NCBI GenBank assembly: GCA_038919385.1
Contig: JBCKZH010000004.1
Coordinates: 1,132-65,131 of the forward strand
Length of the DNA stretch: 64,000 nucleotides
Source: Vicinamibacterales bacterium
GTDB taxonomy: Bacteria > Acidobacteriota > Vicinamibacteria > Vicinamibacterales > UBA2999
Reading direction: 5' to 3'
Part shown: positions 6,550-45,157 of the stretch, piece after piece
Layout: every line of letters starts with the position of its first letter
Numbering within the stretch: the first letter of the stretch is position 1
Notes under the pieces: generated by a model
Databases searched by the model: none
What the model was told of the DNA's origin: nothing
The model's input: only the letters and a program-made list of their open reading frames with translations
Program-made: the position numbers and the translations under genes

Positions 6550-7869
6550 ATGAGCAACGAGGCGCGTGCGAGGCTGGCGGTGATCGCCCTGACCGTGGTC
6601 GCCGCCTCCGCCACCGCGCTGGTGGCGCAGGACTGGCCGCAGATCCTCGGGCCCGGCCGTAACGGCATCTACACCGGCCCGCCGATCATCGCGTCGTTCC
6701 CCCGCTCGGGACCCCCGCTCCTATGGCAGCGCGACATCGGCGCCGGCTTCGCCGGTCCCGCGGTGTCGGCGGGCAGGCTGGTGCTCTTTCATCGGGTCAA
6801 CAATCGCCCCTCGACTTCGCTCGGGGCGACCGTGAGCCTGTCGAACGGTCGCGAGACCGTCGAGGCGATGGACGCGGCGACGGGGAAGACGATCTGGGTG
6901 TTCGATTACCCCACCAGCTACCGCGACGACTTCGGCTTTGACGAAGGGCCGCGCGCCGTGCCCGTGATCGCCGGTGGCCGCGTATTCAGCCACGGTGCAG
7001 ACGGCATGCTGCACGGCATCGACTTCGCCACGGGCAAGGCGTTGTGGTCGGTGGACACCCGCAAGGTGTTCCAGGCGCCCAAGGGCTATTTCGGCGTCGC
7101 CACCGCTCCACTCGTCGATGGCGAACGCGTGATGGTCAACGTCGGCGGCAAGACCGGCCTTGGCGCGCCGAAGCCTGGCGAAGGCGGCGGCATTGTCGCC
7201 TTCGACGCGGCCAGCGGCAAGACGCTCTGGACATCAACCAGCGACGAAGCGAGCTATTCGGCGCCGGTGATGGCGGAGATCGAAGGTCAGCGCACGGCGG
7301 TGTTCTTCACACGCACGGGACTGGTGGCGCTCGATCCGGCGAATGGCACGGTGCGTTATCAGTATCGCTGGCGCGCGCGCATGGCGGCGTCGGTGAATGC
7401 CGCGTCACCGATCGTCGTAAAGGATCAGATCTTTCTCTCGGCCAGCTACGGCACCGGCGCGGTGCTGCTGCAGGTGGCCAACAACGCGGTGAAGCAGGTG
7501 TGGTCGGGCGACGAGTCGCTGTCGAACCACTACTCGACCAGCGTCTACAAGGATGGATACCTGTACGGTTTCGAAGGGCGGCAGGAGTTCGGGCAGAGCC
7601 TGCGATGCGTGGAATTTGCCACCGGCAAGGTGATGTGGAACGTCGATGGCTTCGGCGCCGGCTCGTTGCTGATTGCCGGCGAGTCACTGGTGATCATGCG
7701 CGAATCGGGTGAGCTGGCACTGGCCACTGCCTCACCGAAGGCGTTCCGCTTCACGGCCCGCGCCCAACTGCTGCCCGGCGTCGTCCGCGCCTTTCCCGCA
7801 CTCGCTGACGGCCGCTACTTCGTGCGCAACGACCGCCAACTGAGCGCGTTCGACCTGACCCGGCGTTAG
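6550..7869 (+). CDS. Secreted PQQ-like beta-propeller (BamB-like repeat) protein
   Basis: Signal peptide, DWPQILGP, repeated DAATGK..W units; carries two in-frame repeat insertions. Confidence 0.9.
   Translation: MSNEARARLAVIALTVVAASATALVAQDWPQILGPGRNGIYTGPPIIASFPRSGPPLLWQRDIGAGFAGPAVSAGRLVLFHRVNNRPSTSLGATVSLSNGRETVEAMDAATGKTIWVFDYPTSYRDDFGFDEGPRAVPVIAGGRVFSHGADGMLHGIDFATGKALWSVDTRKVFQAPKGYFGVATAPLVDGERVMVNVGGKTGLGAPKPGEGGGIVAFDAASGKTLWTSTSDEASYSAPVMAEIEGQRTAVFFTRTGLVALDPANGTVRYQYRWRARMAASVNAASPIVVKDQIFLSASYGTGAVLLQVANNAVKQVWSGDESLSNHYSTSVYKDGYLYGFEGRQEFGQSLRCVEFATGKVMWNVDGFGAGSLLIAGESLVIMRESGELALATASPKAFRFTARAQLLPGVVRAFPALADGRYFVRNDRQLSAFDLTRR
6804..6852 (+). repeat. In-frame 45-bp double-hairpin repeat insertion
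   Basis: tcgcccc..ggggcga and gaccgt..acggtc hairpins; TCGC duplicated at 6804 and 6849; adds RPSTSLGATVSLSNG. Confidence 0.75.
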
Positions 7870-12364: not shown

Positions 12365-13411
12365 CTACTTGGTGACGGTGACGACGATGTCTTTGGTCGT
12401 GTTGAGGGCGCCGTCGGACGCCAGGCAGCGAATCGTATAGGTGCCGGGATCCTGAAAATTCGCAGCTACCGTGTACCTGCTGTCGGGCGGAATGGCCGGC
12501 GCCATCCAGCGCGGCGCCCACGGCGCGTTGGCGCCCGCGCGCGTGTCTTCCCACACCTTGGCCTGTGTCGGCGTGAAGCTGACGCGTCCCGCGCCTCGGT
12601 ACACGAAGCATGAGTGACGCAGGCCGGTCTGGCTGCCGACCGTGATCGCCGAGGGCGGACGCTGCGTCGCGGGATCGAACGCCAGCGTGCCGCGCGCCGG
12701 CAGGGGCGCCGGCGGCGCCGTGGCAGGTGTGGCGTTGCCGGGCGCCGGGGTACCGAACGCGCCCAGGATGCGACCCACCGCATTGGCGCGAGCCTGGGCA
12801 ATGAGGCGCCCCTCGCGCGAATCCGGGCCGAAACGCGGCGCCGGCACGCCATCGTCCTTGGCGAACGCAATCAACGTCAACGGTTGTCCAATCTGCGCGC
12901 GGCGATCGCCGCCATCAAGTGTGAGCGTGGGTGCGACGTTGGCGCGAATCGCCGGACTGCTCATGCCGGCGCCGATGGCACCCTGCTCGGACGCCTGGAC
13001 AAGGTTATCCACCACCGAGTCTTCACGCAGCGTGCCGTACGCACGTTCCGTCTTGCCCTTGGTCGTCAGCGTCCACACCAGTTCTTTCTTACCCCAATCC
13101 TGCGGCACGCGCACCTTGAACACGAAGCGGTTACGGCGCGGCAGGAAGTGCGTCGGCTGGCCCTGATCCGGATCGAGGGGCGAGAAGCTGTTCTCCGGAC
13201 CGAGCGGAACATTCACTTCCTCTTCCCAGTTCCGGTTCATGTAGCCGAACATCATGTTGAACGACCCATCGTCGTTCTTCTCCCAGCCTTCGAAGGCTGG
13301 AGACACCGTCTGTCCGCTGGTGTACGACAGCATCTGGGTACTGGCTGTTTGACATGTGAGAACTACCGTAGCCGCGCCCAGTAACAGGCGCGCGCGTCCT
13401 GATCGAATCAT
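12365..13411 (-). CDS. Secreted conserved hypothetical protein with C-terminal Ig/PKD-like domain
   Basis: Signal peptide; GQTVSPAFEGW..FGYMNRN..GQPTHFLPRR; C-terminal F.DPGTY.IRCLASDG. Confidence 0.8.
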   Translation of the reverse strand: MIRSGRARLLLGAATVVLTCQTASTQMLSYTSGQTVSPAFEGWEKNDDGSFNMMFGYMNRNWEEEVNVPLGPENSFSPLDPDQGQPTHFLPRRNRFVFKVRVPQDWGKKELVWTLTTKGKTERAYGTLREDSVVDNLVQASEQGAIGAGMSSPAIRANVAPTLTLDGGDRRAQIGQPLTLIAFAKDDGVPAPRFGPDSREGRLIAQARANAVGRILGAFGTPAPGNATPATAPPAPLPARGTLAFDPATQRPPSAITVGSQTGLRHSCFVYRGAGRVSFTPTQAKVWEDTRAGANAPWAPRWMAPAIPPDSRYTVAANFQDPGTYTIRCLASDGALNTTKDIVVTVTK

Positions 13412-13430
13412 TGCAGAGTCCCCTGGAAGG

Positions 13431-13466
13431 AAAAAGGGTCCGGCCTGCGCCGGACCCCGTCTTTTT
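13431..13466 (-). terminator. Intrinsic terminator
   Basis: Minus strand GGGTCCGGC-GCAG-GCCGGACCC-TTTTT immediately after the stop at 13468. Confidence 0.75.
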
Positions 13467-13467
13467 G

Positions 13468-14922
13468 TTACTGCTGCTGCGCCGTCGGTTTGGCCGGCGG
13501 CGGAATCACGTTGCAGAGCGGACAGCCAATGATTACGTCCGGCCGGTTGGCTCCGAGCTTGCGTCGTCGTTCCGCCATCTCCTGCTGGAACTGGTCATCG
13601 GTCAGCGGCACCGACTGGCCGAGGTCAATGAACATGTTGGCGATCGAGCGGTTACCCGAGCCTTGCCAGTTGCGCGGGTCGGGGATGTTCTTGTTGTTCG
13701 ACGTGTTGTCCATGTAGCCGATGATGTGCAGGATGGTGCCGCGTGGCAGTATCGGCGCGTGGTCATCGTCATATTCGTACTGGCGCACCCAGTTGTGATC
13801 GTAGCCGGCGCAGGTCAGCGTCTGGATGTTGATGCCCCAGATGGCCTCGAGGCACATGCGCTGGCCGGGCGCGTGCAGGTGCGGTTCGAAAGTGGCGATC
13901 TTGGTCGGCTGCTGCAGCACCATGTAGGCGTGCAACTGCTGGTTGGCTTCGTTCGGCTTGATATCGATGTCGAGGCCGTTGCCGAGACTGCGCAGCGTAC
14001 TGCGGCGCGCGGGCTTGTAGCCTTTGGGGTGGAAGCGGAAGCCGAACAGCAGCTTCGACTTCACGTCGGCACCGCCGGCATGCAGGTGGGCGGACTGATA
14101 AATGATGCTGGAGTTGGCTTTCAGCAGGCGGCCTGCGTTGGGCTCGAACACGTCTGCGTTGCGGCCCACTTCGTGAACCGGCCAGCCGACCGCGCCTTCG
14201 GTGAGTGAGGCGTCAATCGCGTCGCCGGCGCCGCTAAATTCCGCGGTCGCCCAAATCAGGTGGTGCCACACGTAGCGCTGTCCCACCGTCTGACGGCCCG
14301 ACGCGTCCTTGGCGAACTCGTTGACCTCGCGGATTTCCACCGAGGCTACGTAGCGGTCTTCGGTCAGCGGGACCTTGGTCGGTTCGAACTCGCCCCACCA
14401 GTCGGGCGTGTTGGCCTTCACCGTGATCTCGGGGCTCTCGACAATCAGGTCGGGCTGGCCGGCGTGCCACGACGCGCCGTCGGGGAAGGTGCGGGCCGTC
14501 GGCAGGTCGGCCACGTTACCGCGCGGAGCGCCGGTGTCGGCCCACTTGGCGATCTTGGCGACCTCTTCATCGCTGAGCGACGGATCGTTCTTGTAGTGCT
14601 GAATGCCGATGTTCTTCTCGATGTACCAGGGCGGCATCACGCCGGCCTTGTCGCGCAGGCCGGTGCGCTGCTTCATGGCACGCGCCCACGGACGCGCGTC
14701 CTCGTAGGTCAGCAGCGACATGGGCGCCACCTGTCCGGGCCGGTGACAGTTCTGGCAACTGCGCTGCAGGATGGGGGCAATGTCCCGGGTGAACGTCACC
14801 TCGGGCGCGGGGGCCGCTTGTTCGGCCTTCACCGCAAGCGGCGCGACCACACCGGCGATCGTCGCACCAAACAGCACGGTTCCGAGGGTCAGGCCCCAGC
14901 CAAAATGCTTACCAACCGCCAT
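13468..14922 (-). CDS. Secreted c-type cytochrome fused to a PHM/DBH-like copper monooxygenase domain
   Basis: Signal peptide; CQNCH haem motif and MPPW; WHH, HLH, PHLHAPG, YDHNW and NMF positions resemble CuH/CuM ligands. Confidence 0.75.
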   Translation of the reverse strand: MAVGKHFGWGLTLGTVLFGATIAGVVAPLAVKAEQAAPAPEVTFTRDIAPILQRSCQNCHRPGQVAPMSLLTYEDARPWARAMKQRTGLRDKAGVMPPWYIEKNIGIQHYKNDPSLSDEEVAKIAKWADTGAPRGNVADLPTARTFPDGASWHAGQPDLIVESPEITVKANTPDWWGEFEPTKVPLTEDRYVASVEIREVNEFAKDASGRQTVGQRYVWHHLIWATAEFSGAGDAIDASLTEGAVGWPVHEVGRNADVFEPNAGRLLKANSSIIYQSAHLHAGGADVKSKLLFGFRFHPKGYKPARRSTLRSLGNGLDIDIKPNEANQQLHAYMVLQQPTKIATFEPHLHAPGQRMCLEAIWGINIQTLTCAGYDHNWVRQYEYDDDHAPILPRGTILHIIGYMDNTSNNKNIPDPRNWQGSGNRSIANMFIDLGQSVPLTDDQFQQEMAERRRKLGANRPDVIIGCPLCNVIPPPAKPTAQQQ

Positions 14923-14990
14923 TACACACTCTCCTTCAAAGGGTCCGGGCGACGCGTTCCACCGTCACCAATTGTATCAGAGTCCTTGTC

Positions 14991-15004
14991 GGGGTCAGAC
15001 CCCT
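14991..15004. repeat. Short palindrome GGGGTCAGACCCC
   Basis: REP-like; related copies near 12326 and 12354. Confidence 0.5.
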
Positions 15005-15150
15005 CAGCAGCGCCGTGCCGTTTTCGCTTGGGGACCCTGTACCTACTGGTATACGAGCAATTTACCTCAAAGTTGCGGTAATTCTAGCGCCGTTTGTCAT
15101 GCTTCGGATACGATTGGCCTTTTCCAAGGCGAACTCTTCAAGGCGGACAC

Positions 15151-16191
15151 GTGCATCCTGACCTCCAAGACGCGATTACCTTCCACGATGCCATCCTTGC
15201 GGAAGGCAGCAAGGCCCTCGTCGGCTACACCCAGCCCAAGATCCTGGCGAACATCGTCTTGTTGTCGGAGATTCCGACGACCTACGACAAGAAGGAGCAG
15301 CGCCAGGTCAACTCGGGCAACCTTCTCTTGCGAGGCGTGCCGGGCGTCGGCAAAACGTTCTTTGGCGTAATTCTGGCGGCGATCAGCAACGCTAAATTCG
15401 CCCGCATCCAGGGCCGCGCCGACCTGCAGCCGACCGAAGTGGTCGGCTTCCAGATGATCAATCCGGCGACCGGCGTGCTGACCACCGAGATGGGCCCGCT
15501 GGCCGAAGCCGAAGTCATCCTGCTGGACGAGATCAACCGCATCCCCCTGAAGTCGCAGAGCGCCTTCCTCGAAGGCCTGCAGGACCGCACCGTCACGGTG
15601 GGCAAGACCACCTACAAGCTGCCGGCCTTCAACTTCGCGATTGCGACCATGAACCCGGTGGAACTTGGCCAGGGCACGTTTCCGCTCTCGGAAGCCGCCA
15701 TGGACCGCTTTGCCATCATGGTGAACATCGGCTACCTGCCGCCCGAGGAAGAGCGCAAGCTGGTGCACTTCGACTTCAAGCAGGTGCGCCTGAATCCGCT
15801 GATGCGCAAGGAGCGCATCATCGAGCTGCGCGCCGCGATCACCGAGCACGTGTATCTGCACGAACGACTCGGCGACTACATCCAGCGCCTGGTCGCGAAC
15901 ACGCGTCCCTACAACCCCGACACAGATTGGCTGCGCCACTCGCCGTCGGAGCTGGTCGAAACCGGCGTCGACCTGGGCGCCTCGCCGCGCGCGATTATCG
16001 TGTGGGGCCGCCTTGCCAAGGTCTGGGCACTGCTCGTCCGTCGCCGGGACGAGGTGTATCCGGAAGACATCCAGGACCTCGCCACCTACGTGCTGGGACA
16101 TCGCCTCTGGCTGGGCCCGCACGCGGCGAGCCACGGCCTCACCACCGACGCCGTGATCAAGGACGTCATCGAGCGCACGCCGATTCCATGA
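15151..16191 (+). CDS. moxR: MoxR-family AAA+ ATPase (MxaR-like)
   Basis: GVPGVGKT, RIQG.ADLQP, LLDEINR, ATMNPVE..GTFPLSEAAMDRF, GASPRA; start set to GTG 15151. Confidence 0.93.
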   Translation: MHPDLQDAITFHDAILAEGSKALVGYTQPKILANIVLLSEIPTTYDKKEQRQVNSGNLLLRGVPGVGKTFFGVILAAISNAKFARIQGRADLQPTEVVGFQMINPATGVLTTEMGPLAEAEVILLDEINRIPLKSQSAFLEGLQDRTVTVGKTTYKLPAFNFAIATMNPVELGQGTFPLSEAAMDRFAIMVNIGYLPPEEERKLVHFDFKQVRLNPLMRKERIIELRAAITEHVYLHERLGDYIQRLVANTRPYNPDTDWLRHSPSELVETGVDLGASPRAIIVWGRLAKVWALLVRRRDEVYPEDIQDLATYVLGHRLWLGPHAASHGLTTDAVIKDVIERTPIP

Positions 16192-17135
16192 GGACGCGGG
16201 AGCAGGAGGTCGAGCCGCTCATCAACCTGTCGGAGATCACCGAGGTCGAGCTGCTCATCCTCAAGCGGATGCGCGAGTTCACCATCGGCGAGCACTCCAG
16301 CATGTTCCATGGCACGGGGTTCGACTTCGTCGGCCTGCGCGACTGGCAGGCCGGCGATCGCTTCGAGGCGATCGACTGGGCGCAGTCGTCGCTGACCAAC
16401 TTCAGCCCGCTGATCGTCCGCGAATTCGAGCAGCCCACCACCTCGGGCGTGATCCTGGTCGCCGATCGATCCGCGTCGACGCGCTGCGGCGCCGACCCCT
16501 CAGCCAAGGCGGATCGCCGCGGCCTGCAGATCGCCACGCTGATCGCGCGCTCAATCGCCACCATTGGCATGTCGGCGGTGTTCTTCCAGGACTCGATTGG
16601 CCTGGTCACCTTCGACGAGGGCTTTCACACGCTCGGGGCGGTGCGCCCGCGCATTGGCAAGGGCCAGGTGATTCATTGCCTCGAGGCCTACCAGGATGGC
16701 CACGGCCTGCAGGAGCTCAAGAACTCGGGCAGCCTGAGCGCGACGCTCACCGGTTTTTCGCGCAAGACGTCGATGATGCCGGTGATCTCCGACTTCCTGT
16801 TTGACGATGCCCCGGCGTTTCTGACAGAGCTGTCGCAAGTCGACAACGTGCACGACGTGTTCATCATGATGGTCGACGCCGCGTTCGCCTTCGAGCTGCC
16901 GCGCGTGTCGGCCGGCTGGGTCGAGGTCTACGATGTGGAAACCGGCAACACGCGCATGATGTCGCGCCGCGAGCTGAGCCGCCAAAGTGAACGCATTCGG
17001 GCGTGGCAAGACGATGTGACCCGGCAGGCGAAGGCACTGGACCTCGATGTACTTCGCTTGGGGATCGACCAGGTCAAGTTTGATGTCGCACTGATTGAAT
17101 GGGTGGCGGAACGCCGCCTGCGGCGGCGGAAGTGA
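16188..17135 (+). CDS. DUF58 domain protein (MxaS-like)
   Basis: G.GFDF.GLRDWQAGD..IDW, VREFE, DRSAS and ISDF motifs; ATGA overlap with moxR. Confidence 0.9.
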   Translation: MRTREQEVEPLINLSEITEVELLILKRMREFTIGEHSSMFHGTGFDFVGLRDWQAGDRFEAIDWAQSSLTNFSPLIVREFEQPTTSGVILVADRSASTRCGADPSAKADRRGLQIATLIARSIATIGMSAVFFQDSIGLVTFDEGFHTLGAVRPRIGKGQVIHCLEAYQDGHGLQELKNSGSLSATLTGFSRKTSMMPVISDFLFDDAPAFLTELSQVDNVHDVFIMMVDAAFAFELPRVSAGWVEVYDVETGNTRMMSRRELSRQSERIRAWQDDVTRQAKALDLDVLRLGIDQVKFDVALIEWVAERRLRRRK

Positions 17136-17157
17136 GAAGTGAGAAGTGAGAAGTGAG
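17130..17157. repeat. Heptamer repeat (AAGTGAG)x4
   Basis: Spans the DUF58 stop up to the next ATG. Confidence 0.85.
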
Positions 17158-18300
17158 ATGAACACACACATGCTTCGCGTTGCACTGCTGGCGGGCCTCG
17201 TCACGGCCGCGCCCGCCTTCGCCCAGACCGGCACCGACCTCGTCGAGGTCGAGCCCATCAAGTGCTGGTGGCGAACCTCCACCAGCGCCGTGCGCACCGG
17301 CGAAGCGTTCGACATGCGGCTGACTTGCGCCGTCGTCGAAACCGAAGCCACCAAGGTCGTGCCCGACTTGTCGAAGCTCGACCCGACGGTGGTGCAGCTA
17401 CCGCCCTTCGAGGTCACCGGCGGCACGCACGCCGGCGACCTGGTGACCGTCGGCAAGCGCTTCTTCCAGTACGACTACCGCATGCGGCTGATCGCCGAAG
17501 ACGCCTTTGGCGCCGACGTCGCGGTACCGCCGCTCGAGGTCACCTACCGCGTCGAGAGCAAGGTGACCGGCGGCGATTCCGTGCAGGGCCGAGAGTTGAG
17601 TTACGCGTTGCCGCGCGCCTCGGTGAAGCTGATCTCGGTGGTGCCGGATGACACCTCCGACATTCGCGAGGCACCGGCCGCGGCGTTCTCGGCCATCGAG
17701 GACCGCGATTCCCGCGCCGCCTTGTATCGAACCGTTGCCACCGTTCTGTTCGCGCTGGCCGGGGTGATGGTCGCGGTGACTCTGATCGGCAGGTTGCGCG
17801 GCAAGACCAGGACGACGGCGGCGGCGCGCGCGCACCTGGGACCGCGCGCGATTCTGCGGCACGCGGCCAGCGAACTGAACCATGTGCAGCGAGCCGGACG
17901 CGGCGGGTGGACGCCGGAACTGACCGGCCGTGCCCTGTCGGCGGCGCGCATTGCCGGCAGCTACGCATCGGGGCGCAGCGTGGGCCAGCGGCCCGTGGGG
18001 GTGAACGATCCGCTGGTTGACGGCGCGCTGCTGGTCGGCCGCGGCATGGGCCGCGCGCAGATGTACGTGTCCGGGTCGGTCACGGCGGAATCGGCGACCG
18101 ACCCCACGCTGGCCGCGGCCCTGAAGACGCTGACCGTCGTGCGCTACGGTCGCGACGGCAAGTTCACGGATGCAGATGATGCGGTCGCCACCGCCATCCG
18201 TATCACCAAGCAGCAGCAGTCGGCCCATTCGGTTGTCTCGGAATGGTCGAGGGCGTTGGTGCGCTCGCTGGTCGATATGCGGAAGAAAGTGTGGGCTTGA
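17158..18300 (+). CDS. MxaA/BatD-like exported single-TM protein
   Basis: Signal peptide, beta-rich domain, one TM helix; third position in an mxaRSACKL-like order. Confidence 0.6.
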   Translation: MNTHMLRVALLAGLVTAAPAFAQTGTDLVEVEPIKCWWRTSTSAVRTGEAFDMRLTCAVVETEATKVVPDLSKLDPTVVQLPPFEVTGGTHAGDLVTVGKRFFQYDYRMRLIAEDAFGADVAVPPLEVTYRVESKVTGGDSVQGRELSYALPRASVKLISVVPDDTSDIREAPAAAFSAIEDRDSRAALYRTVATVLFALAGVMVAVTLIGRLRGKTRTTAAARAHLGPRAILRHAASELNHVQRAGRGGWTPELTGRALSAARIAGSYASGRSVGQRPVGVNDPLVDGALLVGRGMGRAQMYVSGSVTAESATDPTLAAALKTLTVVRYGRDGKFTDADDAVATAIRITKQQQSAHSVVSEWSRALVRSLVDMRKKVWA

Positions 18301-18320
18301 GGCTTGGGGCTTGAAGACTG

Positions 18321-19424
18321 ATGCAGGCGTATCGGGACATTAGCGCGCTCGTCATGGCCACGTGGGCCGAGTGGGGAGAGCTGCGTCTCGAGCGTTTGAT
18401 CTTTTCTGAAAGCAGCACGGCGCGACAGGTGGTGATGGCCCTGATCGGCCTCGCCGCGATCTTCATGGTGATCCGATCGTTCGGCAGCCGCAATCCCGGG
18501 CACCGCCGCGTGGCGCTGCCCGCCATTGTCACCAGCTCAGGCTGGTCGCGGGCCTCGCTGTCCCGGCACGGGGCGCTGATCCTCGCGCTGGCCGGCCTGC
18601 CGTTCTTCATTCTGGCGCTCGCGGATCCGCGCACGTCGCTGACGCGATCCGAAACCACCTACCCAGGCCGCCGCATCAGCCTGCTGATCGACGCCTCGTC
18701 CAGCATGCTGTCGGCGCTGCCGTCGAGCACGCTGGCCAAGGGCGCGCCCAACAACGCCGCCTTCTTCACCACGGTGGGCGCCGCGCGCTACTTCATCGAA
18801 CGCCGCATGGCGGGCAAGTACCGCGACCTGATGGCGCTGATCGAGTTTGGCGACGATGCCTACGTCATCACGCCGTTCACGACGGACTACGAGAACATCC
18901 TGCTGAGTACCGCGCTGATCGGCGACTGGAACGAATTCATGGCCTTCCCGGACCAGGGCACCGTGGTGGCCCGCGCCGTCGAACAGAGCGTGGGCCTGTT
19001 CCAGGCCTTCGATTTTCTCGACGCCGCGGGCAACCTGATGGTGGTCTTCACCGACGGCGCCGACGCCGACGTGCTCGAGAACGGCAAGACGGTGGACGAC
19101 GTGCTCGCCGATGCGATGAAGGCGAAGATCCCCGTCTACCTGATCAAGATTGGCGGCAATATCCAGAACAAGCGGAGTGTCGCCGACGAGCTGTGGATCA
19201 ATGCCGTGAAGAAGACCGGCGGCCAGTTCTTCTCTGGCGTCGACGAGGCGACCATTATCCAGTCCATCCAGGCGATCGATCGGCTGTCGGCCGGCACCAT
19301 CGAGATGAAGCAGTACAGCACCGAGCGTCCACGGTATGCGCCCTTCGCGCTGACCGCGGTGGCGCTGTGGTGCGCCGCGTTGCTGTTGCGGTTCACGATT
19401 CCGACGTTTCAAACGTTTCCGTAG
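18321..19424 (+). CDS. VWA domain membrane protein (MxaC/BatA-like)
   Basis: N-terminal TMs, ALADP, MIDAS DASSS, GT and FTDG, C-terminal TM. Confidence 0.88.
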   Translation: MQAYRDISALVMATWAEWGELRLERLIFSESSTARQVVMALIGLAAIFMVIRSFGSRNPGHRRVALPAIVTSSGWSRASLSRHGALILALAGLPFFILALADPRTSLTRSETTYPGRRISLLIDASSSMLSALPSSTLAKGAPNNAAFFTTVGAARYFIERRMAGKYRDLMALIEFGDDAYVITPFTTDYENILLSTALIGDWNEFMAFPDQGTVVARAVEQSVGLFQAFDFLDAAGNLMVVFTDGADADVLENGKTVDDVLADAMKAKIPVYLIKIGGNIQNKRSVADELWINAVKKTGGQFFSGVDEATIIQSIQAIDRLSAGTIEMKQYSTERPRYAPFALTAVALWCAALLLRFTIPTFQTFP

Positions 19425-19433
19425 GAGAAGAGC

Positions 19434-20084
19434 ATGAGATCGTCTTCGTGGTTCGGGCAGGCACCGATCGTCGTGGTCCTTCTGGCCGGCGGCGCCATCC
19501 TGTGGCGCACGTCGGAATCGGAGCATCGCCTCGCCGCCGCTGAACGTGACCTGGTGACGCTGCGCTACGCGGAAGCCGGCGCCCAGGCCCAGGGACCGGG
19601 ACGCATTGCCCGCCTGCTGCCCGGCAACGACCGCCTGACGGCCGACGCCCAGGCGCTCAACGCCACGGCGGCCTACTGGCAGGGCGACTACAACACCGTG
19701 GCGGCCAATACCGACGCCAAGCTGCTGGCCGCGAATGCGGCCTATCGCACGCTGCGCAAAGAGGGCGGCACCTGGCAGTCGGTGGTGGGCAAGCTGGACT
19801 CGGTGGTGAAAAGCTACGCGGAGATCCTGCGCGAGCAGCCCGCCAACGCCGAGGCGGGATTCAACTACGAGTACACGGTCCGCCTGCGCGCGGTGCTGGC
19901 GGCTCGCAAGCAACCGGTGGCGCCGTTCGATGCCTCGGCCACGCTGACGCTGCACGGCTTCGAGGGCGCGCCGCCAGAAGGATCGGACATGAAGAAGTTC
20001 AAGATGATTGTGCCGATGCGCCCGGACGAACGGCTGGAAGCTGAAAAGGCCGGCAAGGGAACGACCAAAGTGAGGAAGGGATAG
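19434..20084 (+). CDS. MxaK/BatC-like protein
   Basis: N-terminal TM; ANAAYR; Y.EILR..P.NAEAGFNYE TPR-like motif. Confidence 0.6.
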   Translation: MRSSSWFGQAPIVVVLLAGGAILWRTSESEHRLAAAERDLVTLRYAEAGAQAQGPGRIARLLPGNDRLTADAQALNATAAYWQGDYNTVAANTDAKLLAANAAYRTLRKEGGTWQSVVGKLDSVVKSYAEILREQPANAEAGFNYEYTVRLRAVLAARKQPVAPFDASATLTLHGFEGAPPEGSDMKKFKMIVPMRPDERLEAEKAGKGTTKVRKG

Positions 20085-20089
20085 GCACG

Positions 20090-21178
20090 TTGAAGTTTGG
20101 CGCTCCCGGATTCCTGCCGCTGCTGGCTGTCCCGGCTATCCTGCTGCTGCTGTGGGTGTGGCAGGTGTGGCGCCGGCGCACGGACGTGCGCGCGTTCATG
20201 AACCAGCGGCAGGTGCCGGTCCACGAGCACGTGCCCTTTTTTGGCGAGTTGCTGTTCTGGTTCTGCCTCGTGCTGGCGGCGGCGGCAGGAATCACGGCCA
20301 TCGCCAGGCCACAGGCCGTCACCTCGCTGGTGCGCACCGCCGGCATTGACCTCGTCATCCTCCAGGATGGCTCGGCCTCCATGCACGTGCAGGATGTGCG
20401 TGGCAACCGGTGGCAGCGCTCCATGCGCTTTCTCCGCACGCTCGGCGAATCACTGCGGTGGGACAACGACCGCATTGCGATGGCGCTGTTCGCCCACATG
20501 GCCACGCCGCAGATTCGCCTCACCAAGGATCCCAATACCTACTTCTTCTTCCTCGATCACCTCGAAGACAAGTCGCCGTTCCGCCTGGAAGACGACGGCA
20601 CGTGGGACACCAATATCGAGCGGGGCATCTACTGGGGGCTGCGGCTGATCGAGAAGGACGAGGAGATTCGCCGCGCCTCGGGCCTCGACGAGAAGCTTGG
20701 CGCGAACAGCAACGCCAAGGCGTTCCTGCTGATCTCCGACGGACAGTCGTGGAGCGGCGAGGTCGCCAAGTCACTCGCTCTCGCCCAGGAGCGCGGCGTG
20801 CCGCTGAACGTCGTCGGCATCGGGACGACGGCGGGTGGCCTCATTCCAGACCCGAAGCGACTGCCGGGTCAGCCCTTGCTTCGCTCTGTGCTCAACCGGG
20901 CGGAGCTGACGCGTATTGCCACCGCTGGCGGCGGCCGCTACTTCGAGATCGATCGCGACAGCGATCGCGACATCGCCAATCAGGTGATCGAACAGACGCG
21001 CCGCCGGGCCGGCACGACGGGCGTCCAGGAAGGCGTGCAGGAGCTGTACTGGAACTTCCTGCTGGCGGCAGGCGTGCTGATCGTTTTGGGCGTGTTGTTC
21101 CTGCGCGACCGCGTGGCGCTGGCACTGCAGTTGTCGGCGGCGGCCGCCGTGTTGGTGTTTGTGCAGTCGGTGTTTTGA
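20090..21178 (+). CDS. VWA domain membrane protein (MxaL/BatB-like)
   Basis: BatA-like N-terminus, ARP, MIDAS DGSAS, TN, ISDG, VGIGTTAGG. Confidence 0.88.
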   Translation: MKFGAPGFLPLLAVPAILLLLWVWQVWRRRTDVRAFMNQRQVPVHEHVPFFGELLFWFCLVLAAAAGITAIARPQAVTSLVRTAGIDLVILQDGSASMHVQDVRGNRWQRSMRFLRTLGESLRWDNDRIAMALFAHMATPQIRLTKDPNTYFFFLDHLEDKSPFRLEDDGTWDTNIERGIYWGLRLIEKDEEIRRASGLDEKLGANSNAKAFLLISDGQSWSGEVAKSLALAQERGVPLNVVGIGTTAGGLIPDPKRLPGQPLLRSVLNRAELTRIATAGGGRYFEIDRDSDRDIANQVIEQTRRRAGTTGVQEGVQELYWNFLLAAGVLIVLGVLFLRDRVALALQLSAAAAVLVFVQSVF

Positions 21179-22474: not shown

Positions 22475-23005
22475 GTGAACTTCGCGGGAGTGCTGGACCG
22501 CGTCGGCGGCATGCTGGAATCGAACGGCTGGCGGTATGCCGTCGCCGGGGGCATCGCCATGGCGGCCTACGGCCATCCGCGTCTCACGCTCGACCTCGAC
22601 CTCGTGGCCGAACGAGATGCCCAGGCGTCCCTGATGACGTTTCTCGAGGATGCCGGTTACCAGACGCTCCACCGTTCTCCCGGCTTCTCGAACCATCGTC
22701 ATGCGGATCGCGAATGGGGCCGGCTCGATTTCATCTACGTGGACGCCGCGACTGCCGACCGGCTGTTCGCGAATCTTCAAGAACGGCCCGGGCCTGGCGG
22801 GAGAACAATCATGGTGCCGCGACCGGAGCACCTCATTGCGATGAAGGTGCAGGCGATGAAGAACGCTCCCGAGCGAACATGGCAGGATATGGCTGACATC
22901 GCCTTCCTGCTGTCGCTTGACGGCGTGGATCGCGCGGAAGCGAAGGGCTATTTCGAGAAGGCCGAATTGCTGGAGCGATGGCATGACCTCGAAGCTTCGC
23001 GCTGA
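22475..23005 (+). CDS. Nucleotidyltransferase (AbiEii/DUF6036-like)
   Basis: YAVAGG.A..AYGHPRLTLDLDL; EHLIAMK...QDMADI. Confidence 0.85.
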   Translation: MNFAGVLDRVGGMLESNGWRYAVAGGIAMAAYGHPRLTLDLDLVAERDAQASLMTFLEDAGYQTLHRSPGFSNHRHADREWGRLDFIYVDAATADRLFANLQERPGPGGRTIMVPRPEHLIAMKVQAMKNAPERTWQDMADIAFLLSLDGVDRAEAKGYFEKAELLERWHDLEASR

Positions 23006-23195
23006 CCAACACCTGGATCTCGATCGCGGTCTTCCAGTGACGCAGGAGGACATCGCAGTGCAGCGGCGCCTGCGCCTGGAATCGCCGTCGTGGCTTGAGC
23101 TGGACTGGCGCGAGCTCGACGCGATGCTCCCGCCCGATGCCCTGGACCGCCGGCCCGTGGCGCGCGACTCGTGGGCGCCGTTCTCACTGGACTGA
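22983..23195 (+). CDS. Small hypothetical protein coupled to the NTase
   Basis: 70-aa ORF overlapping the NTase 3' end. Confidence 0.6.
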   Translation: MTSKLRADQHLDLDRGLPVTQEDIAVQRRLRLESPSWLELDWRELDAMLPPDALDRRPVARDSWAPFSLD

Positions 23196-23199
23196 CGAC

Positions 23200-24097
23200 C
23201 GGACATTTCCCACCCCCACATCGCGCAGGTCCACGGCTTCGAGATGATCTCCACCGACGCCGGCAGTACCGGCCGCGCGTTGGTGATGGAGTTGGTGGAA
23301 GGCGGCGACCTCTCGCAGATCCTCGCGCGCGGACCGCTGCCGCTCGACGAAGCACTCCCCATCGCGCGGCAGATTGCCGAGGCGCTCGAGGCCGCGCACG
23401 CACAGGGCGTCGTGCATCGCGACCTGAAGCCCGCCAACATCAAGGTGCGGCCCGACGGGTCGGTGAAGGTGCTCGACTTTGGGCTGGCCAAGGCGGTGGA
23501 TGGGGCGGGTGGGACAGGTGGGGCCGCGGTCGCCAAGAGCGAGCCGGACTGGCAACGGCTGCCGCCGAACACTCCGGTGATCGTGCAGCGGCTGTTGCGC
23601 CGGACGCTGCAGAAGGATCGCACCAAGCGGCTGCAGCACATCGGCGACGCGCGGCTCGATCTGGACGAGGCGCTAAGCGCACCCGAGCCGGTCGCGGCAC
23701 CAGCCGGGACCGTACGGGCGGCTACGAATTGGTGGCGGATGGGGCTGATCCACGCCGCGGTCGCGGCGGCCGGTGCAGCGGTGGCGGTTGCGGCGCTGGG
23801 CCTGATTCGCGGCATGCCCCCAACCGCAGATCGTGCCGTGCAGTTCGACTTGCCCACCGGCACCCTGGCTCGCGTGTCTTGGTCCCTTTCTCCGGACGGC
23901 CGATATCTCACCTACCAGCAACCAGGAGCATCCGGTCGAATGGACTTGTGGCTGCGCGATCTGGCCAAACCGGTAGCTGAACGCCTGGGTGCCAGCGAGT
24001 CGAGGTCCAATCTGGTGTGGTCGCCTGACAGCCTGCTGCTCCTCGTCTCAGAGCGGGCGGGGCTGCGCCGCTTCGACCTTCGCACGCGGACGAGCTC
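23200..24097 (+). pseudogene. Hanks-type Ser/Thr kinase with TolB-like repeats, collapsed
   Basis: [23 protein letters not shown] and DFGLAK present; N-lobe and subdomains VIII-X missing; SPDG repeats truncated. Confidence 0.85.
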
Positions 24098-24098
24098 A

Positions 24099-24252
24099 CA
24101 CATGTTCCGGGACACGTTCGCGTGGAACTGCTCAAGCGCGGCGTACCGATCGAAACCGTATCGATGCTGCTCGGCCACGCGTCGATCAAGGTCACGGAGA
24201 AGCACTACAAGCCGTGGGTAAAGACGCCGCAGGACAAGCTTGAGGCCGATAC
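24099..24252 (+). pseudogene. Tyrosine recombinase C-terminal remnant
   Basis: [35 protein letters not shown] with a 1-nt frameshift. Confidence 0.8.
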
Positions 24253-24478
24253 TTATGAAGGGATGGCCAAAAGCACCTGGGCAACGGCCTGCCGAGCGGC
24301 GCTCGCGCAAACCTTGACCTGGCGACGTCCTGAGCGTCGAAGGCTGACTGATTCCCTAAGGGTCGCCCGTCGGAATAAAAGCGAGAACGACTACTTGTTG
24401 TACAGCCACGCTTCAGCCTTTGTCATGGCGTCAGCGGCTGTGTACGCTTTGCCGAGGTACGACCATCCTGACGGAGGC

Positions 24479-25117
24479 GAATGGTTGGACTCATTTTTCG
24501 CGCGCGACAGCCAGCGTCTCTTCGGTTTCCGTGACATCAATCGCTTCAACGCGCTGTTTGAATACCTGCTGCGCCAGAGTGGCGGGCAGTTCGAGGTCAC
24601 GAAAACCGCCACCGCGCTCGGCATTACACGGCCCACGGTAGAGAGTCACCTCCGCGCGCTGGAGATCACCCACGCGGTCGCGCTCCTGCGGCCCTTCCAC
24701 GGCAGCGGACGGCAGGAACTGGTGAAGCAGCCCAAGGTCTATGCCTTCGACACGGGGTTCGTGAGCTTCGCGCGAGGATGGGATCCGCTGCGAACGGAGG
24801 ACTTGGGTCTGCTATGGGAACACTTGGTCCTGGAGCATTTGCAAGGATATTTTCCTGACACACCGGTACGGTACTGGCGAGACAAGCAGGGCCACGAAGT
24901 GGATTTCGTCCTGGCCTCTCGTCGCGACGAGGTCGATGCCATCGAATGTAAGTGGAACGCCGACGCGTTCGACAGTGCGGGACTTGCGCTGTTTCGCAGC
25001 TACTACCCGAAGGGTCGCAACTATCTGGTGACGCCCTCCGGTGCGCCAGGTTACCCGAAGGGCTTTGGCGCGCTGGAGGTGCAGGTGTGTACGCCGACGG
25101 ACCTCCGCCTCCAGTAG
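24479..25117 (+). pseudogene. DUF4143 half of an AAA_14/DUF4143 ATPase-nuclease (ATPase half missing)
   Basis: WLDSFFARD, PKVYAFDTG, LWEHLV, YWRDKQGHEVDF and IECK motifs. Confidence 0.8.
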
Positions 25118-39142: not shown

Positions 39143-39859
39143 CTAGAACATCCATTGCGGGACGCATCTCCAAGCCTTCCTTAGAGATTGATCAAGCAGC
39201 TTGAACCCTGGCTCATATGACGCCAGCAATCTCCAAAAGTCGCCGGAATGGTTCATGTGGACGGTGTGGCAGAGTTCGTGGACGAGGACATAGCGCAAGA
39301 GTTCGGGAGGAAGAAATAGCAGCTTTGTGTTGAGAGAGAGATTCCGCTGTGCCGAGCAACTGGCCCAGCGGGTGCGCTGGCTCTTCACGAGCAGACCGCC
39401 GAGTTTCAGGCGGTGTTTGGTGGCGATGTTCTCGGCGAGCGGAAACAAGCCCTCACGCACTCGGAGACGCAGCCAGTCTTTGAGCTTGCGAATCACGGAT
39501 TCTCGCTCCAGCACTGCGCCGCTGATGACCAACTTCCCCTTCTCAGCTCGCAGCCAGAGGCCCGAGCGCGCTGCATCTTCCTTGTAAACGACAGTCCAGG
39601 TCTCACCGAGGGCGGTTAGCTTTACGCTTTCTGGCAGATGCGTCACCGGCTTGGGTTCAAGGAAGCGCTTGGCCTCGTTCACGCGTTTTATGGCATCAGC
39701 GATCCACACCTTCTTTCGCTTCAGGATGCCGGGAATCTTCTTCTCATCGAAGCTCGACGGCACTACCACGCAGAGGCCGTCCTCCCGCGTCACTTTGAGA
39801 CGCAGGCTCTTCGAGCGCGGACTGCGCCGGACTTGGTAATCAGGGAGCGCTGTCTTCAT
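39143..39859 (-). CDS. YgjP/SprT-like (M48, DUF45) metallopeptidase
   Basis: RTRWASCS, YVLVHELCH..HMNHS..FW; typical neighbour of hsdR. Confidence 0.9.
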   Translation of the reverse strand: MKTALPDYQVRRSPRSKSLRLKVTREDGLCVVVPSSFDEKKIPGILKRKKVWIADAIKRVNEAKRFLEPKPVTHLPESVKLTALGETWTVVYKEDAARSGLWLRAEKGKLVISGAVLERESVIRKLKDWLRLRVREGLFPLAENIATKHRLKLGGLLVKSQRTRWASCSAQRNLSLNTKLLFLPPELLRYVLVHELCHTVHMNHSGDFWRLLASYEPGFKLLDQSLRKAWRCVPQWMF

Positions 39860-42857: not shown

Positions 42858-42862
42858 AGTGG

Positions 42863-43900
42863 TCAGGGCTTCTTGGGTGTCTTGCGGGTGCGCTTGCTCT
42901 TCTCCAAATGCTTCACCTGCTGGATGGCTTCAATGAAATGCTGCTCCACCAGAGACGGCTTTGCTGCCTCGAGGGTGCGGAACTTTTCAAACTCCATCTC
43001 CGCTTTCGCCAGCGCCGTCTCGTGAGTTACGCGGCCTGCATGAGTAAGAATCTCCCGCTCACTGATGCACATGAAATCATCCAGCTTGGCGATCCAGTCG
43101 CGCATCGTCATCACGCGGCGGCTGCGCGCCTGAAGTTCGGCGAAGTCGAGGTAGAGCGAGACAATGAGGTTCAAGTCTTCGAGTTCCGTCTGGTTCAGGT
43201 AGTTCTTGGCCACCGCCACATCCGTCTTGCGCGGGCGGGTGCCGGGCCAGATCCTCAGGCCCATGTTGGGCTTTGCGGCGTCGGCGCGGGCGGCGATGAC
43301 CTCCGCTGCCGTCTGCCCGTGAGCGGCCCAGTGCATCTTGTTCTGCACCGTGGCGAAGAATAACTGCGACGCCTCCGCGCGCGGCTCGTAGTCCGCACTG
43401 GTGGCGTAAATGTCCAGCACCTTGCGCCAGAACACTTTTTCCGATGACCGGATGTCGCGAATGCGCTCCAGCAACTCATCGAAGTAGGCGCCGCCGCCCG
43501 TCTGCTTCAGCCGCTCATCGTCCATCGTGAAGCCCTTCACGATGTAGTCCCGCAGCCGCTGCGTGGCCCAGATGCGGAACTGCGTGCCGCGCAACGACTT
43601 CACCCGGTAACCCACCGAAATGATCACATCCAGGTTGTAGTGCTGCGTGGCGTAGCTCTTGCCGTCGGTGGCAGTGGTTAAGAATTCCTTAACCACTGAA
43701 CCCGCCGGTAGCTCGCCCTCGGCAAAGACGTTGCGAATGTGCATGCTCACATTCGGAACCGACGTCTGGAACAACTCCGCCATCAGTTTCTGCGTGAGCC
43801 AGACCGTTTCATCCTCCAACCGCACCTGCACGCGCGTCTGCCCGTCCTCCGTCTGGTAGAGGATCAGGCTGGACTGCGGCGCTGGCTCGGGCGTGCTCAT
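42863..43900 (-). CDS. rhuM: RhuM-family protein
   Basis: VWLTQ..MAELF, YNLDVIISVGYRVKS..FRIWA and RIRDIRSSEK motifs. Confidence 0.92.
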   Translation of the reverse strand: MSTPEPAPQSSLILYQTEDGQTRVQVRLEDETVWLTQKLMAELFQTSVPNVSMHIRNVFAEGELPAGSVVKEFLTTATDGKSYATQHYNLDVIISVGYRVKSLRGTQFRIWATQRLRDYIVKGFTMDDERLKQTGGGAYFDELLERIRDIRSSEKVFWRKVLDIYATSADYEPRAEASQLFFATVQNKMHWAAHGQTAAEVIAARADAAKPNMGLRIWPGTRPRKTDVAVAKNYLNQTELEDLNLIVSLYLDFAELQARSRRVMTMRDWIAKLDDFMCISEREILTHAGRVTHETALAKAEMEFEKFRTLEAAKPSLVEQHFIEAIQQVKHLEKSKRTRKTPKKP

Positions 43901-45156
43901 GGCTTCAGGCGCAGCTTGCCCGTGAGGAGGTTTTGCAGGAGCGACTGCTTCACGCGGCAGGCGGCGGTGAGTTGTTTTTGAAGCTCAATAACAAGGTCAT
44001 CTGCAGCATTGATCGCCTCGATGATCTCATCCTGCTCTTCTGGTTGGGGCAGCGGAATCAAGAACTTGCTGAGTGAGCGCGCACCCAAATTGAAATTTCC
44101 AGCCGAAGTATTCGCAAGGCAGTTGGCCTGAATGCGCCCGGTTCTTCCCAGAAGCACATAATTCAAAAATGCGCCCCGAAGCCGCCGCTCATCCACCCGA
44201 ATGCGAATGAGGTAGGACGCGAAGATCGTAAGCTCACTCAGAACACCGTCGGGAATCACGGTGGAGCGCCCGATGTAACTTGGATTGCCATTCGTCCGCA
44301 CCGCGAGCACGTCATGCGGTTTCAAAGCGAGAGCCTCCTTTTCCTGCTCAGACACCTCCGCGTATGGGAGTTCCCCAAGCACAAACCGCGAACAAAGCAC
44401 TTGTGGAATCGCGATTACGGGAACACCTCCCTGATAATCGTTGGATGACTGGTTAGTGCCGTAGTCAATCTGGGGCTTGAGCACCTTCAGCTCTACCTGA
44501 TCCCACTGGCTGTTTACGGTGAAGTGATAACCGTAACGCTTCGCCGTCTTTGTGTTCGTGCGCGTGTGCAGTCCTGTTGTCGTTCCCTGCTCAACGAGCC
44601 CCTTCTTCACCCGCTCGGCCTTGCGGATTTGCTCTTCGATGGCGCGGATGTGGTCGTCCGCCGCCTTCAGCGTCTCGGCGATGCGGGTTTGTTCGGCGAG
44701 GTCGTTTGGAACGAGGCATTTGAGCTGTGAAAAGTGCCGAGCCGTTACAGCGTCGAAAGTCGATCCCTGAGCTGCACGAGCCAAAGGCCTCCGCCAGCGG
44801 TGCATAGCATGAAAGAAAAAGTCGGAATCTAAACTGATGGGTCGCATGGCCGCGACTCCACGGCCCAAAGCGTATTGGCGATCTGCCCTACATAATTCCC
44901 CGACAGGTGCGCGGACACTAATAAGGGTGTCATTCGCTTCACATGTCTTTCCGGCTTGGCGGGTGCAGACTTTGGTTTGCGGGAATGTATCCGTGAAATC
45001 GGCATTGCCTTGAAGGAACGGCATGCCCTCACCAATCTCATTGTAGTGTTCGGAATCGGGTGATTGGCCGAAGACGAACAACACTTCTCCGCTTAAAGGC
45101 GACAAGCGCCAACCTGCGGGCTTGTCCTTGAATTCAGGCAGATCAGTCCAACGCAT
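43897..45156 (-). CDS. hsdS: Type I RM specificity subunit
   Basis: Two TRDs, each followed by P...EQ..I helical spacers; ends LLTGK; lower GC. Confidence 0.92.
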   Translation of the reverse strand: MRWTDLPEFKDKPAGWRLSPLSGEVLFVFGQSPDSEHYNEIGEGMPFLQGNADFTDTFPQTKVCTRQAGKTCEANDTLISVRAPVGELCRADRQYALGRGVAAMRPISLDSDFFFHAMHRWRRPLARAAQGSTFDAVTARHFSQLKCLVPNDLAEQTRIAETLKAADDHIRAIEEQIRKAERVKKGLVEQGTTTGLHTRTNTKTAKRYGYHFTVNSQWDQVELKVLKPQIDYGTNQSSNDYQGGVPVIAIPQVLCSRFVLGELPYAEVSEQEKEALALKPHDVLAVRTNGNPSYIGRSTVIPDGVLSELTIFASYLIRIRVDERRLRGAFLNYVLLGRTGRIQANCLANTSAGNFNLGARSLSKFLIPLPQPEEQDEIIEAINAADDLVIELQKQLTAACRVKQSLLQNLLTGKLRLKP

Positions 45157-45157
45157 A

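Follow-up and report, generated by a model that had tools for sequence, protein, structure and literature searches.

A predicted haem-fed, two-subunit copper oxygenase of Vicinamibacterales and the MoxR–VWA cluster that appears to be its neighbour by descent

Peptidylglycine alpha-hydroxylating monooxygenase (PHM), the catalytic core of PAM, and dopamine beta-hydroxylase (DBH) are well-known ascorbate-dependent enzymes with which animals make amidated hormones and noradrenaline. Cellobiose dehydrogenase reduces lytic polysaccharide monooxygenases (LPMOs), and quinohaemoprotein dehydrogenases carry fused cytochrome c domains. Among bacterial gene sets with a MoxR ATPase and VWA proteins, the Bat operon (Bacteroides aerotolerance) of Bacteroidota and spirochaetes has the order MoxR–DUF58–hypothetical–BatA–BatB–BatC–BatD. 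All six products of MxaRSACKL are needed for Ca2+ incorporation into methanol dehydrogenase (PMC12276312). Here we analyse a 64,000-nucleotide stretch (the window) from contig JBCKZH010000004.1 of a Vicinamibacterales bacterium, which is contig C4 of a 3.97-Mb assembly that is 74% complete; the nearest relatives found in public collections carry the labels Vicinamibacterales or Acidobacteriota. On the minus strand lies the gene for a secreted, haem-bearing protein, cyt484, followed after a 56-bp gap by that for a second secreted protein, partner348, and six packed genes encoding a MoxR ATPase, VWA proteins and their associates run divergently from it on the plus strand. We hold with moderate confidence that these are two separate units: a secreted, haem-fed, PHM-type oxygenase of two subunits (12365–14922) and an autonomous cluster of the Bat/Mxa class (15094–21178).

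An earlier reading of the letters alone (the sequence-only reading) had named eight genes here, and open reading frames and domain searches bear out all eight positions. The oxygenase unit comprises the following features.

13468–14922, minus strand: cyt484, a secreted protein of 484 residues with a c-type haem domain and a predicted PHM/DBH-fold dicopper monooxygenase core; hydrophobic segment at residues 13–31
14503–14817, minus strand: haem c domain of cyt484, about residues 36–140, with C56xxC59H60 and an invariant M96-P-P (candidate axial Met)
13588–14460, minus strand: PHM/DBH-like catalytic core of cyt484, residues 155–445, with putative CuH ligands H220, H221 and H279 and putative CuM ligands H348, H350 and M430
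12365–13411, minus strand: partner348, a secreted beta-sandwich protein of 348 residues without a Pfam family; predicted second subunit
13435–13458, minus strand: GC-rich hairpin with a T-run, terminator- or attenuator-like, in the gap between cyt484 and partner348; consensus scan, 10-pair stem with 8 GC pairs
14971–14998, minus strand: weak sigma-70-like promoter match, 49 nt upstream of the cyt484 start; consensus scan, 9/12 with TG

The AlphaFold2 model of cyt484, built from 27 family members, had a predicted local distance difference test score (pLDDT) of 77 and a predicted template-modelling score (pTM) of 0.74. Foldseek matched this model to human DBH (4zel, E 1.3e-9) and to about 25 rat PHM entries (E 1e-7 to 1e-5). 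In VIA-align it superposed on 4zel_A with a Z-score of 20.0 (302 residues aligned, root-mean-square deviation 3.7) and on 25 PHM entries with Z-scores of 15.0–19.9, the highest being 6ala_C at 19.9, over 229–253 of about 305 residues; the best unrelated fold was PNGase F at a Z-score of 7.9. Residues 155–445 of the model align to PHM 55–328, so that both domains are covered. A PHM-type enzyme had been guessed from the letters, and the prediction for 13468–14922 agrees, with Z-scores of 15–20 and the ligand residues present in 109–111 of 111 sequences.

Those 111 sequences comprise the window, 75 related loci, nine paralogues from the same genome and 26 representatives, some of them about 35% identical to cyt484. 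H220, H221 and H279 are present in 111/111, H348 in 110/111, and H350 and M430 in 109/111 each; of the haem residues, CxxCH is found in 110/111 and M96 in 111/111. The deviants are P0158, which looks garbled, and P0133. The copper ligands of PHM, as given in PMC12164859, are H107, H108 and H172 at the H site and H242, H244 and M314 at the M site, which gives spacings of 64/70/70 residues against 58/69/80 in cyt484, and the HH pair of cyt484 falls in a single predicted beta-strand (E219–228). The sequence-only reading had described a secreted protein with one CxxCH and HH, HxH, HxH and M motifs; these are C56xxC59H60, H220-H221, H279-L-H281 and H348-L-H350, and the conserved methionine proves to be M430 rather than the one just after the second HxH. 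Retention of the full His3 and His2Met pattern in paralogues only 35% identical would be difficult to account for if the two copper sites were not both in use. By its predicted structure and its aligned sequences, cyt484 is a PHM/DBH-fold protein in which both sets of copper ligands are conserved; the geometry of its two copper sites and the position of its haem are putative.

The likeness to PHM, DBH and tyramine beta-monooxygenase (Cu2_monooxygen plus Cu2_monoox_C) thus lies in a two-domain beta-sandwich of about 250–300 residues, with HH..H for CuH and HxH..M for CuM at nearly equal spacing. There are also differences: cyt484 is 11–13% identical to these enzymes, is bacterial, is exported by a signal peptide and scores under the Pfam cut-offs. 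Fused to its N-terminus is a c-type haem domain, in contrast to the use of ascorbate by the animal enzymes, and a distinct, conserved subunit of beta-sandwich type is predicted to cover its active-site cleft. Its family is present in several copies, 12 of them in a genome that is 74% complete. In the place of the haem domain, DBH has a DOMON domain. With c-type cytochromes cyt484 shares CxxCH, the candidate axial M96 and an N-terminal signal segment. A cytochrome domain that trades single electrons with an extracytoplasmic catalytic domain would recall cellobiose dehydrogenase with LPMOs and the quinohaemoprotein dehydrogenases, but their catalytic folds and metals are others and the likeness is one of functional analogy only.

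Several profile searches weigh against the assignment of cyt484 to this enzyme class. It has no match to any Pfam copper-monooxygenase model even at E values up to 10, and the N-domain model Cu2_monooxygen (PF01082) matches no member of the family. Searches of sequences in the Protein Data Bank (PDB) with the family profile from alignment A1 and with the paralogue on contig C95 recovered no PHM or DBH, which fold searches alone retrieved; the A1 profile matched only haem-motif stretches (5c2v, E 0.02; 4rlr, E 0.052). For the haem domain itself, Pfam Cytochrome_CBB3 scored 18.8 bits on cyt484 (E 0.002), below its cut-off of 27. The C-domain model Cu2_monoox_C (PF03712) did respond to paralogues in the same genome: six-frame translations gave 24.3 bits for C95 (cut-off 23), 21.8 for C134 and 20.3 for C88. 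As a called protein, C95 falls to 21.3 bits, under that cut-off, and called proteins ranged from 19.5 (C134) to 21.3 bits; P0192, a row of A1, scored 20.4. At the level of sequence, a bridge from the cyt484 family to the Pfam copper-monooxygenase family exists, but it is thin.

In 76 of 80 related loci the cyt gene is immediately followed, on its own strand, by the partner gene; each of the remaining four loci stops at the cyt gene. The model of partner348 (pLDDT 77) consists of beta-sandwich domains, for which Foldseek and a wide VIA-align search returned only generic Ig/PKD-like matches, confined to residues of about 156–348 and with Z-scores of at most 6.7. Its most conserved, N-terminal part (about residues 34–150) received no fold assignment in either search, which does not by itself make it a new fold. 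When cyt484 and partner348 were co-folded, the interface score ipSAE reached 0.85, 0.83 and 0.84, as against 0.00 for the best control; the mark used is reached by 58/80 solved complexes and 2/110 mismatched pairs, a calibration that holds only roughly here, and to that extent counts against the result, because the co-folding used custom alignments. At least 87% of contacts agreed between runs, in which partner348 had a pLDDT of at least 81. On the cyt484 side the predicted interface includes residues 276–284 and 414–432, which hold H279 and M430, and on the partner348 side it is formed by the conserved N-terminal part (residues 37–40, 58–60 and 122–152). Co-folding of cyt484 with the product of 12365–13411, which the sequence-only reading had proposed as a check, therefore predicts docking on the copper cleft (ipSAE 0.84 versus 0.00). 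The predicted interface supports binding of partner348 at the inter-domain copper cleft of cyt484, and the two proteins probably form a physical complex.

The consensus scans that yielded the hairpin between the two genes and the promoter upstream of cyt484 returned 11 sites against 5.9 expected and two sites against 1.2 expected by chance, respectively. The hairpin could lower read-through into the partner348 gene. A look-up of sequencing data sets for 12365–21178 listed no RNA set, and all 22 sets listed share at most 0.11 of the sampled words.

A profile search of the source genome (G000) found 12 open reading frames (ORFs) of the cyt484 family and eight of the partner. They include five intact head-to-tail pairs (C4, C58, C56, C80 and C8), one degenerate pair (C16), two family genes at contig ends (C104 and C229) and four divergent members that lack a partner (C88, C95, C134 and a copy on C56 with fused TPR repeats). 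In a collection clustered at 90% identity, 7,912 of 8,000 scored candidates match at E 0.001 or better, and the names among the matches listed are 'cytochrome c', 'mono/diheme cytochrome c family protein' and 'hypothetical'. A library clustered at 50% identity yields 11,846 matching representatives at E 0.001 or better, 6,206 at 1e-10 and 714 at 1e-30 or better, and many of the weak matches may share the haem domain only. We found no bacterial haem-fused PHM-like family in the literature searched, whose coverage of subscription journals was poor, so that absence from print is unproven.

Some family members carry additional domains. P0209 (1,251 residues) is fused to an AhpC-TSA/redoxin domain, a thioredoxin and a second haem-binding domain, and other members are fused to EF-hands or to C-terminal TPR repeats (P0193, 1,064 residues; C56:12561–14378 in the source genome), the latter copy being adjoined by a thioredoxin-like gene. 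Genes resembling TonB-dependent receptors (CarboxypepD_reg plus OMP_b-brl_4) stand beside three paralogues, at C56:15015–18143, C104:7834–10737 and C16:21239–23401, and a fourth (C8:8045–10816) lies 5 kb from a family gene, with an extracytoplasmic function (ECF)-type sigma factor gene between them. As a general third partner this gene was rejected: it falls within the flank of 7/80 loci, about the background expected of a gene present at 27 places in 3.97 Mb. Many family matches in other genomes show exactly one in-frame TAG or TGA (for example G106:C1:2607308–2608588 and G083:C1:1266540–1267811). Their open frames are about as long as the match, and the flags probably arise where the profile runs a few residues past a stop that precedes the true start.

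We infer that cyt484 binds copper and haem and performs monooxygenase chemistry along the following electron path. The fused haem c would take electrons from a periplasmic carrier and pass them to CuH and then to CuM, replacing the job of ascorbate in the animal enzymes; CuM would bind and activate O2 and hydroxylate a C–H bond of a periplasmic substrate. The conserved N-terminal part of partner348 would grip the cleft that separates the two copper domains, where it could shape or gate the substrate site. More broadly, and only tentatively, we propose that cyt484 and partner348 represent an undescribed class of bacterial periplasmic, two-subunit PHM/DBH-type dicopper monooxygenases that draw respiratory electrons through a fused cytochrome c instead of ascorbate, reach some twelve copies or more per genome among Vicinamibacterales, related Acidobacteriota and Gemmatimonadota, and act on varied organic substrates; in one young lineage a MoxR–VWA machine of the Bat/Mxa class may be recruited as their loader. 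If this is true, a bacterial relative of PHM and DBH that is fed by its own cytochrome c, with an extra subunit at the cleft, would be a new way to power copper chemistry. Large, strongly conserved and multi-copy in Acidobacteriota that abound in soil and fresh water, the family could provide an unrecognised path for the oxidative turnover of carbon and could yield new catalysts for hydroxylation.

The same observations can be read with cyt484 as a protein of the PHM fold that is not a C–H hydroxylase, working instead in electron transfer or as an oxidase, in copper handling or in other O2 or N-oxide chemistry, with partner348 an unrelated, co-transcribed adhesin-like protein. Scores of cyt484 below the Pfam cut-offs would suit this, as would the generic Ig/PKD-like sandwich that is the recognisable part of partner348, the four divergent paralogues that lack a partner, and the hairpin between the two genes, which could uncouple their expression. 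We nevertheless consider it unlikely, given that the His3 and His2Met pattern persists across paralogues of only 35% identity, that the predicted interface covers the very cleft with H279 and M430 while controls stay at 0.00, and that the gene pair is kept in 76/80 loci.

The second unit begins 171 bp from cyt484, counted from a TTG at 15094; the gap of about 230 bp reported by the sequence-only reading holds from a GTG further in. Its last five genes are spaced by 5–20 bp, and its features are as follows.

15094–16191, plus strand: MoxR-class AAA+ ATPase (AAA_3, E 3e-35; AAA_lid_2, E 6.5e-15); orthologues 79–98% identical
16200–17135, plus strand: DUF58 protein (DUF58, E 2.6e-16); ORF open from 15927, likely start at about 16188–16200, overlapping the MoxR stop
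17146–18300, plus strand: TM384, 384 residues with a signal-like N-terminus, an exported domain, one transmembrane helix (197–215) and a C-terminal domain; position of MxaA or of the Bat 'hypothetical' protein
18321–19424, plus strand: VWA367, membrane-anchored VWA protein in the BatA/MxaC position (VWA, E 6.3e-5); three hydrophobic helices
19434–20084, plus strand: p216, 216 residues with an N-terminal transmembrane helix, possibly TPR-like; MxaK/BatC position
20090–21178, plus strand: VWA362, membrane-anchored VWA protein in the BatB/MxaL position (VWA, E 6.8e-11); four hydrophobic helices

For the DUF58 gene, tblastn alignments to orthologues open within the first residues of the start at 16200. 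TM384 matched no Pfam or NCBIfam family, and its nearest named Atlas clusters, both at 0.92, carry BatD on 11% and DUF4381 on 24% of their members and are leads only. No Pfam family was found for p216 either; its TPR nature comes from an Atlas cluster with TPR_2 on 36% of members, at 0.91, and is likewise a lead only. VWA367 scored 23.7 bits against Pfam VWA, just under the cut-off of 23.8.

As a member of the Bat/Mxa class the cluster is unremarkable. In NCBIfam its two VWA proteins match BatA and BatB models alone, with scores well short of the cut-offs: VWA367 matches BatA_Lepto at E 6.1e-10 (38.6 bits, cut-off 380), and VWA362 matches BatA at 6.1e-7 and BatB at 1.2e-6; scores of 38.6 and 28.8 bits compare with cut-offs of 380 and 350. 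When VWA367 was searched by tblastn against a plasmid collection, matches were found only at 24–28% identity, the best annotated being the Bat operon of Prevotella nigrescens, with the order AAA ATPase, DUF58, hypothetical, VWA, VWA, TPR, BatD. Its MoxR is 35%, its DUF58 protein 27% and its VWA proteins 26–29% identical to those of the window (26% between VWA367 and the VWA protein in the BatA position), which marks a homologous set, and both clusters combine MoxR and DUF58 with two membrane VWA proteins and a putative TPR protein. The window differs from Bat in its order of VWA, small protein, VWA, as in MxaC–K–L, against VWA, VWA, TPR, and in having no large BatD gene; the BatA N-terminal domain (PF07584), detected by Pfam in a cluster on contig C33 of the same genome, was not detected in VWA367 or VWA362.

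With MxaRSACKL, which in methylotrophs serves MxaFI methanol dehydrogenase, the cluster shares the order of protein types, that is MoxR, DUF58/VWA-like, exported transmembrane protein, VWA, small protein and VWA, so that the match to mxaRSACKL claimed from the letters stands at the level of domain order and architecture. The accompanying statement on Ca2+ insertion agrees with PMC12276312. The window cluster differs in that no mxaF/xoxF, mxaI, mxaJ or mxaG adjoins it, and clusters of its type have varying flanks and are present in five genomes in which no dehydrogenase dependent on pyrroloquinoline quinone (PQQ) was found. It had been noted that the window holds no mxaF/xoxF-type PQQ dehydrogenase, and searches of the 64 kb indeed found only a BamB-like PQQ_2 propeller at 6550–7869. 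By analogy with its class, the cluster probably remodels or loads some envelope protein or proteins.

Strong AAA_3 genes occur at only three places in the source genome. The second MoxR system (C33; L120:611–13112) consists of MoxR, DUF58, a 712-residue protein with BatA-N and VWA domains, DUF4175, three DUF4159 genes and a GATase1-like gene. The third MoxR gene is at the end of contig C1 (L119; C1:103066–104106), 5.3 kb from a quinohaemoprotein-type PQQ-dependent alcohol dehydrogenase (PQQ-ADH; C1:95572–97707) that has a PQQ propeller and a fused cytochrome c domain. Genes for a subtilase, an aminotransferase, a STAS protein and an M19 dipeptidase lie between the two, and the contig ends before any downstream partners of this MoxR gene.

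We next consider the linkage of the two units, on which the case for a dedicated relationship turns. MoxR and the cluster are adjacent to the family gene in 26 of the 80 related loci, all 26 being orthologues at 77% identity or more, and two further orthologous loci (L031 and L049) lack the upstream flank. Among loci at 73% identity or less, MoxR was within the flank in 0/52, 42 of which have at least 3 kb upstream, and none of the other 11 family genes in the source genome is near a MoxR gene. A quick IQ-TREE phylogeny of 76 rows (L042, L050, L077, L089 and L099 having been dropped by a length and stop filter) placed all 25 MoxR-adjacent rows in one clade of 27 (SH-aLRT 99), the other two rows of which lack the upstream flank; the sister clade of seven is not MoxR-adjacent. 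Since all adjacent rows belong to one clade, the adjacency arose once.

Within that clade the two units are often separated by another gene. Nine orthologous loci (L023, L025, L027, L028, L034, L036, L045, L046 and L047) have a gene of about 460 residues with haem c and a YNCE-like propeller between the units, and L030 has a different gene there. Because genes are inserted in many orthologous loci, there is no conserved shared control region. The 460-residue gene (L023:8507–9901, plus strand) is on the strand of cyt484, encodes CxxCH and a YNCE-like or cytochrome-D1-like beta-propeller, and has no counterpart in the window; it could serve cyt484 as an electron partner, or be a mere insertion.

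Seen from the cluster, the picture is similar. Its gene order is kept in 20/20 orthologous cluster loci across the order, as far as the contigs reach; in two loci, both of family f9, VWA362 is replaced. By tblastn at E 1e-4 or better, with matches of at least 80 residues shown, a gene of the cyt484 family or its partner adjoins the cluster in 1/20 of these loci and in 0/14 with at least 3.5 kb beyond MoxR, five loci being uninformative. The flanks of the 14 informative loci differ widely and include genes for a kinase, an acylphosphatase, an FAA hydrolase, CcmH, PilZ and an aldehyde dehydrogenase, among others. In one (L145; G089:C22, 11727–14282) the cluster is divergent from genes for a dihaem cytochrome c and a PQQ-dependent dehydrogenase, an Mxa-like setting. 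The cluster is inherited as a self-contained unit across the order.

We also tallied 151 genomes of the order, scoring the cluster by VWA367 at E 1e-20 or better and the family by the A1 profile at E 1e-40 or better. The cluster was found in 46 and the family in 75; 42 have both, four the cluster only and 33 the family only. Four genomes that are 90–100% complete (G132, G028, G057 and G094) have the cluster with neither the family nor a PQQ-ADH at the thresholds used, and PQQ-ADH occurs in 41/46 cluster genomes versus 52/105 others. Cluster and family are adjacent in four of the 42 genomes that have both (G000, G087, G143 and G075), counting close homologues only (E 1e-150 or better) and at most ten candidates per genome.

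Two of these results speak for a tie between the units and so against their separateness. The linkage is kept in 26/26 orthologous loci with flank, even in those without the CotH and phosphoesterase neighbours, and the family occurs in 42/46 cluster genomes versus 33/105 others, a comparison confounded by relatedness. Together with the divergent arrangement across a gap of 171–230 bp and a gene order equal to that of mxaRSACKL, whose six products are needed for Ca2+ incorporation (PMC12276312), they are what could be said for the proposal of the sequence-only reading, in which the cluster is a dedicated metallochaperone that inserts copper into the neighbouring haem–copper oxygenase, or folds or loads it, as MxaRSACKL does with Ca2+. 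We think this improbable. The adjacency arose once and recurs neither in the 14 informative cluster loci elsewhere nor in the 52 loci of distant homologues; none of the genome's 11 further family genes lies close to a MoxR gene; 33 genomes hold the family without the cluster and four the cluster without the family; the 460-residue haem and propeller gene or another gene separates the units in many orthologous loci; and PQQ dehydrogenases co-occur with the cluster equally well (41/46). That reading had itself named, in advance, a failure of the linkage to be conserved in relatives as what would refute it, and by the neighbourhood comparison, the tree and the 151 genomes conservation largely fails: the linkage is limited to one clade of close orthologues, and family and cluster each occur alone. 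A cluster that is a true Mxa-like system for a PQQ-ADH encoded elsewhere, with cyt484 a mere neighbour, seems less probable still: the source genome does have three PQQ-ADHs above the TIGR03075 cut-off (on C18, C1 and C5), G089 does have the divergent arrangement with dihaem cytochrome c and PQQ dehydrogenase genes, and PQQ-ADH is enriched in cluster genomes (41/46 versus 52/105), but a PQQ dehydrogenase adjoins the cluster in only 1/14 informative loci, no PQQ-ADH was found at E 1e-120 or better in five cluster genomes of 90–100% completeness, 30/34 genomes of families f8, f12 and f18 hold PQQ-ADH and none of them the cluster, and none of the three genes in the source genome is on the window contig.

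The reading that we favour, of two separate units, takes the cluster to be independent of the cyt484–partner348 unit, and the distribution suggests that the cluster and the oxygenase pair are neighbours by descent rather than a dedicated team; their adjacency would be one ancestral arrangement kept in a young clade. A gene beside a MoxR/VWA cluster is thus not to be read as its client when the adjacency arose once, and the six-gene cluster is probably an autonomous unit.

Two further regions of the window lie outside both units. On the 3' side of the cluster, 22475–25117 (plus strand) holds an AbiEii-like nucleotidyltransferase fragment, a partial Ser/Thr kinase ORF and a DUF4143 protein; this patchy region has no synteny in relatives past the glyoxalase gene. 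Further on, 39840–46522 (minus strand) is a type I restriction-modification locus (HsdR and an N6 methylase) with a RhuM-family gene (E 9e-112) between its subunit genes.

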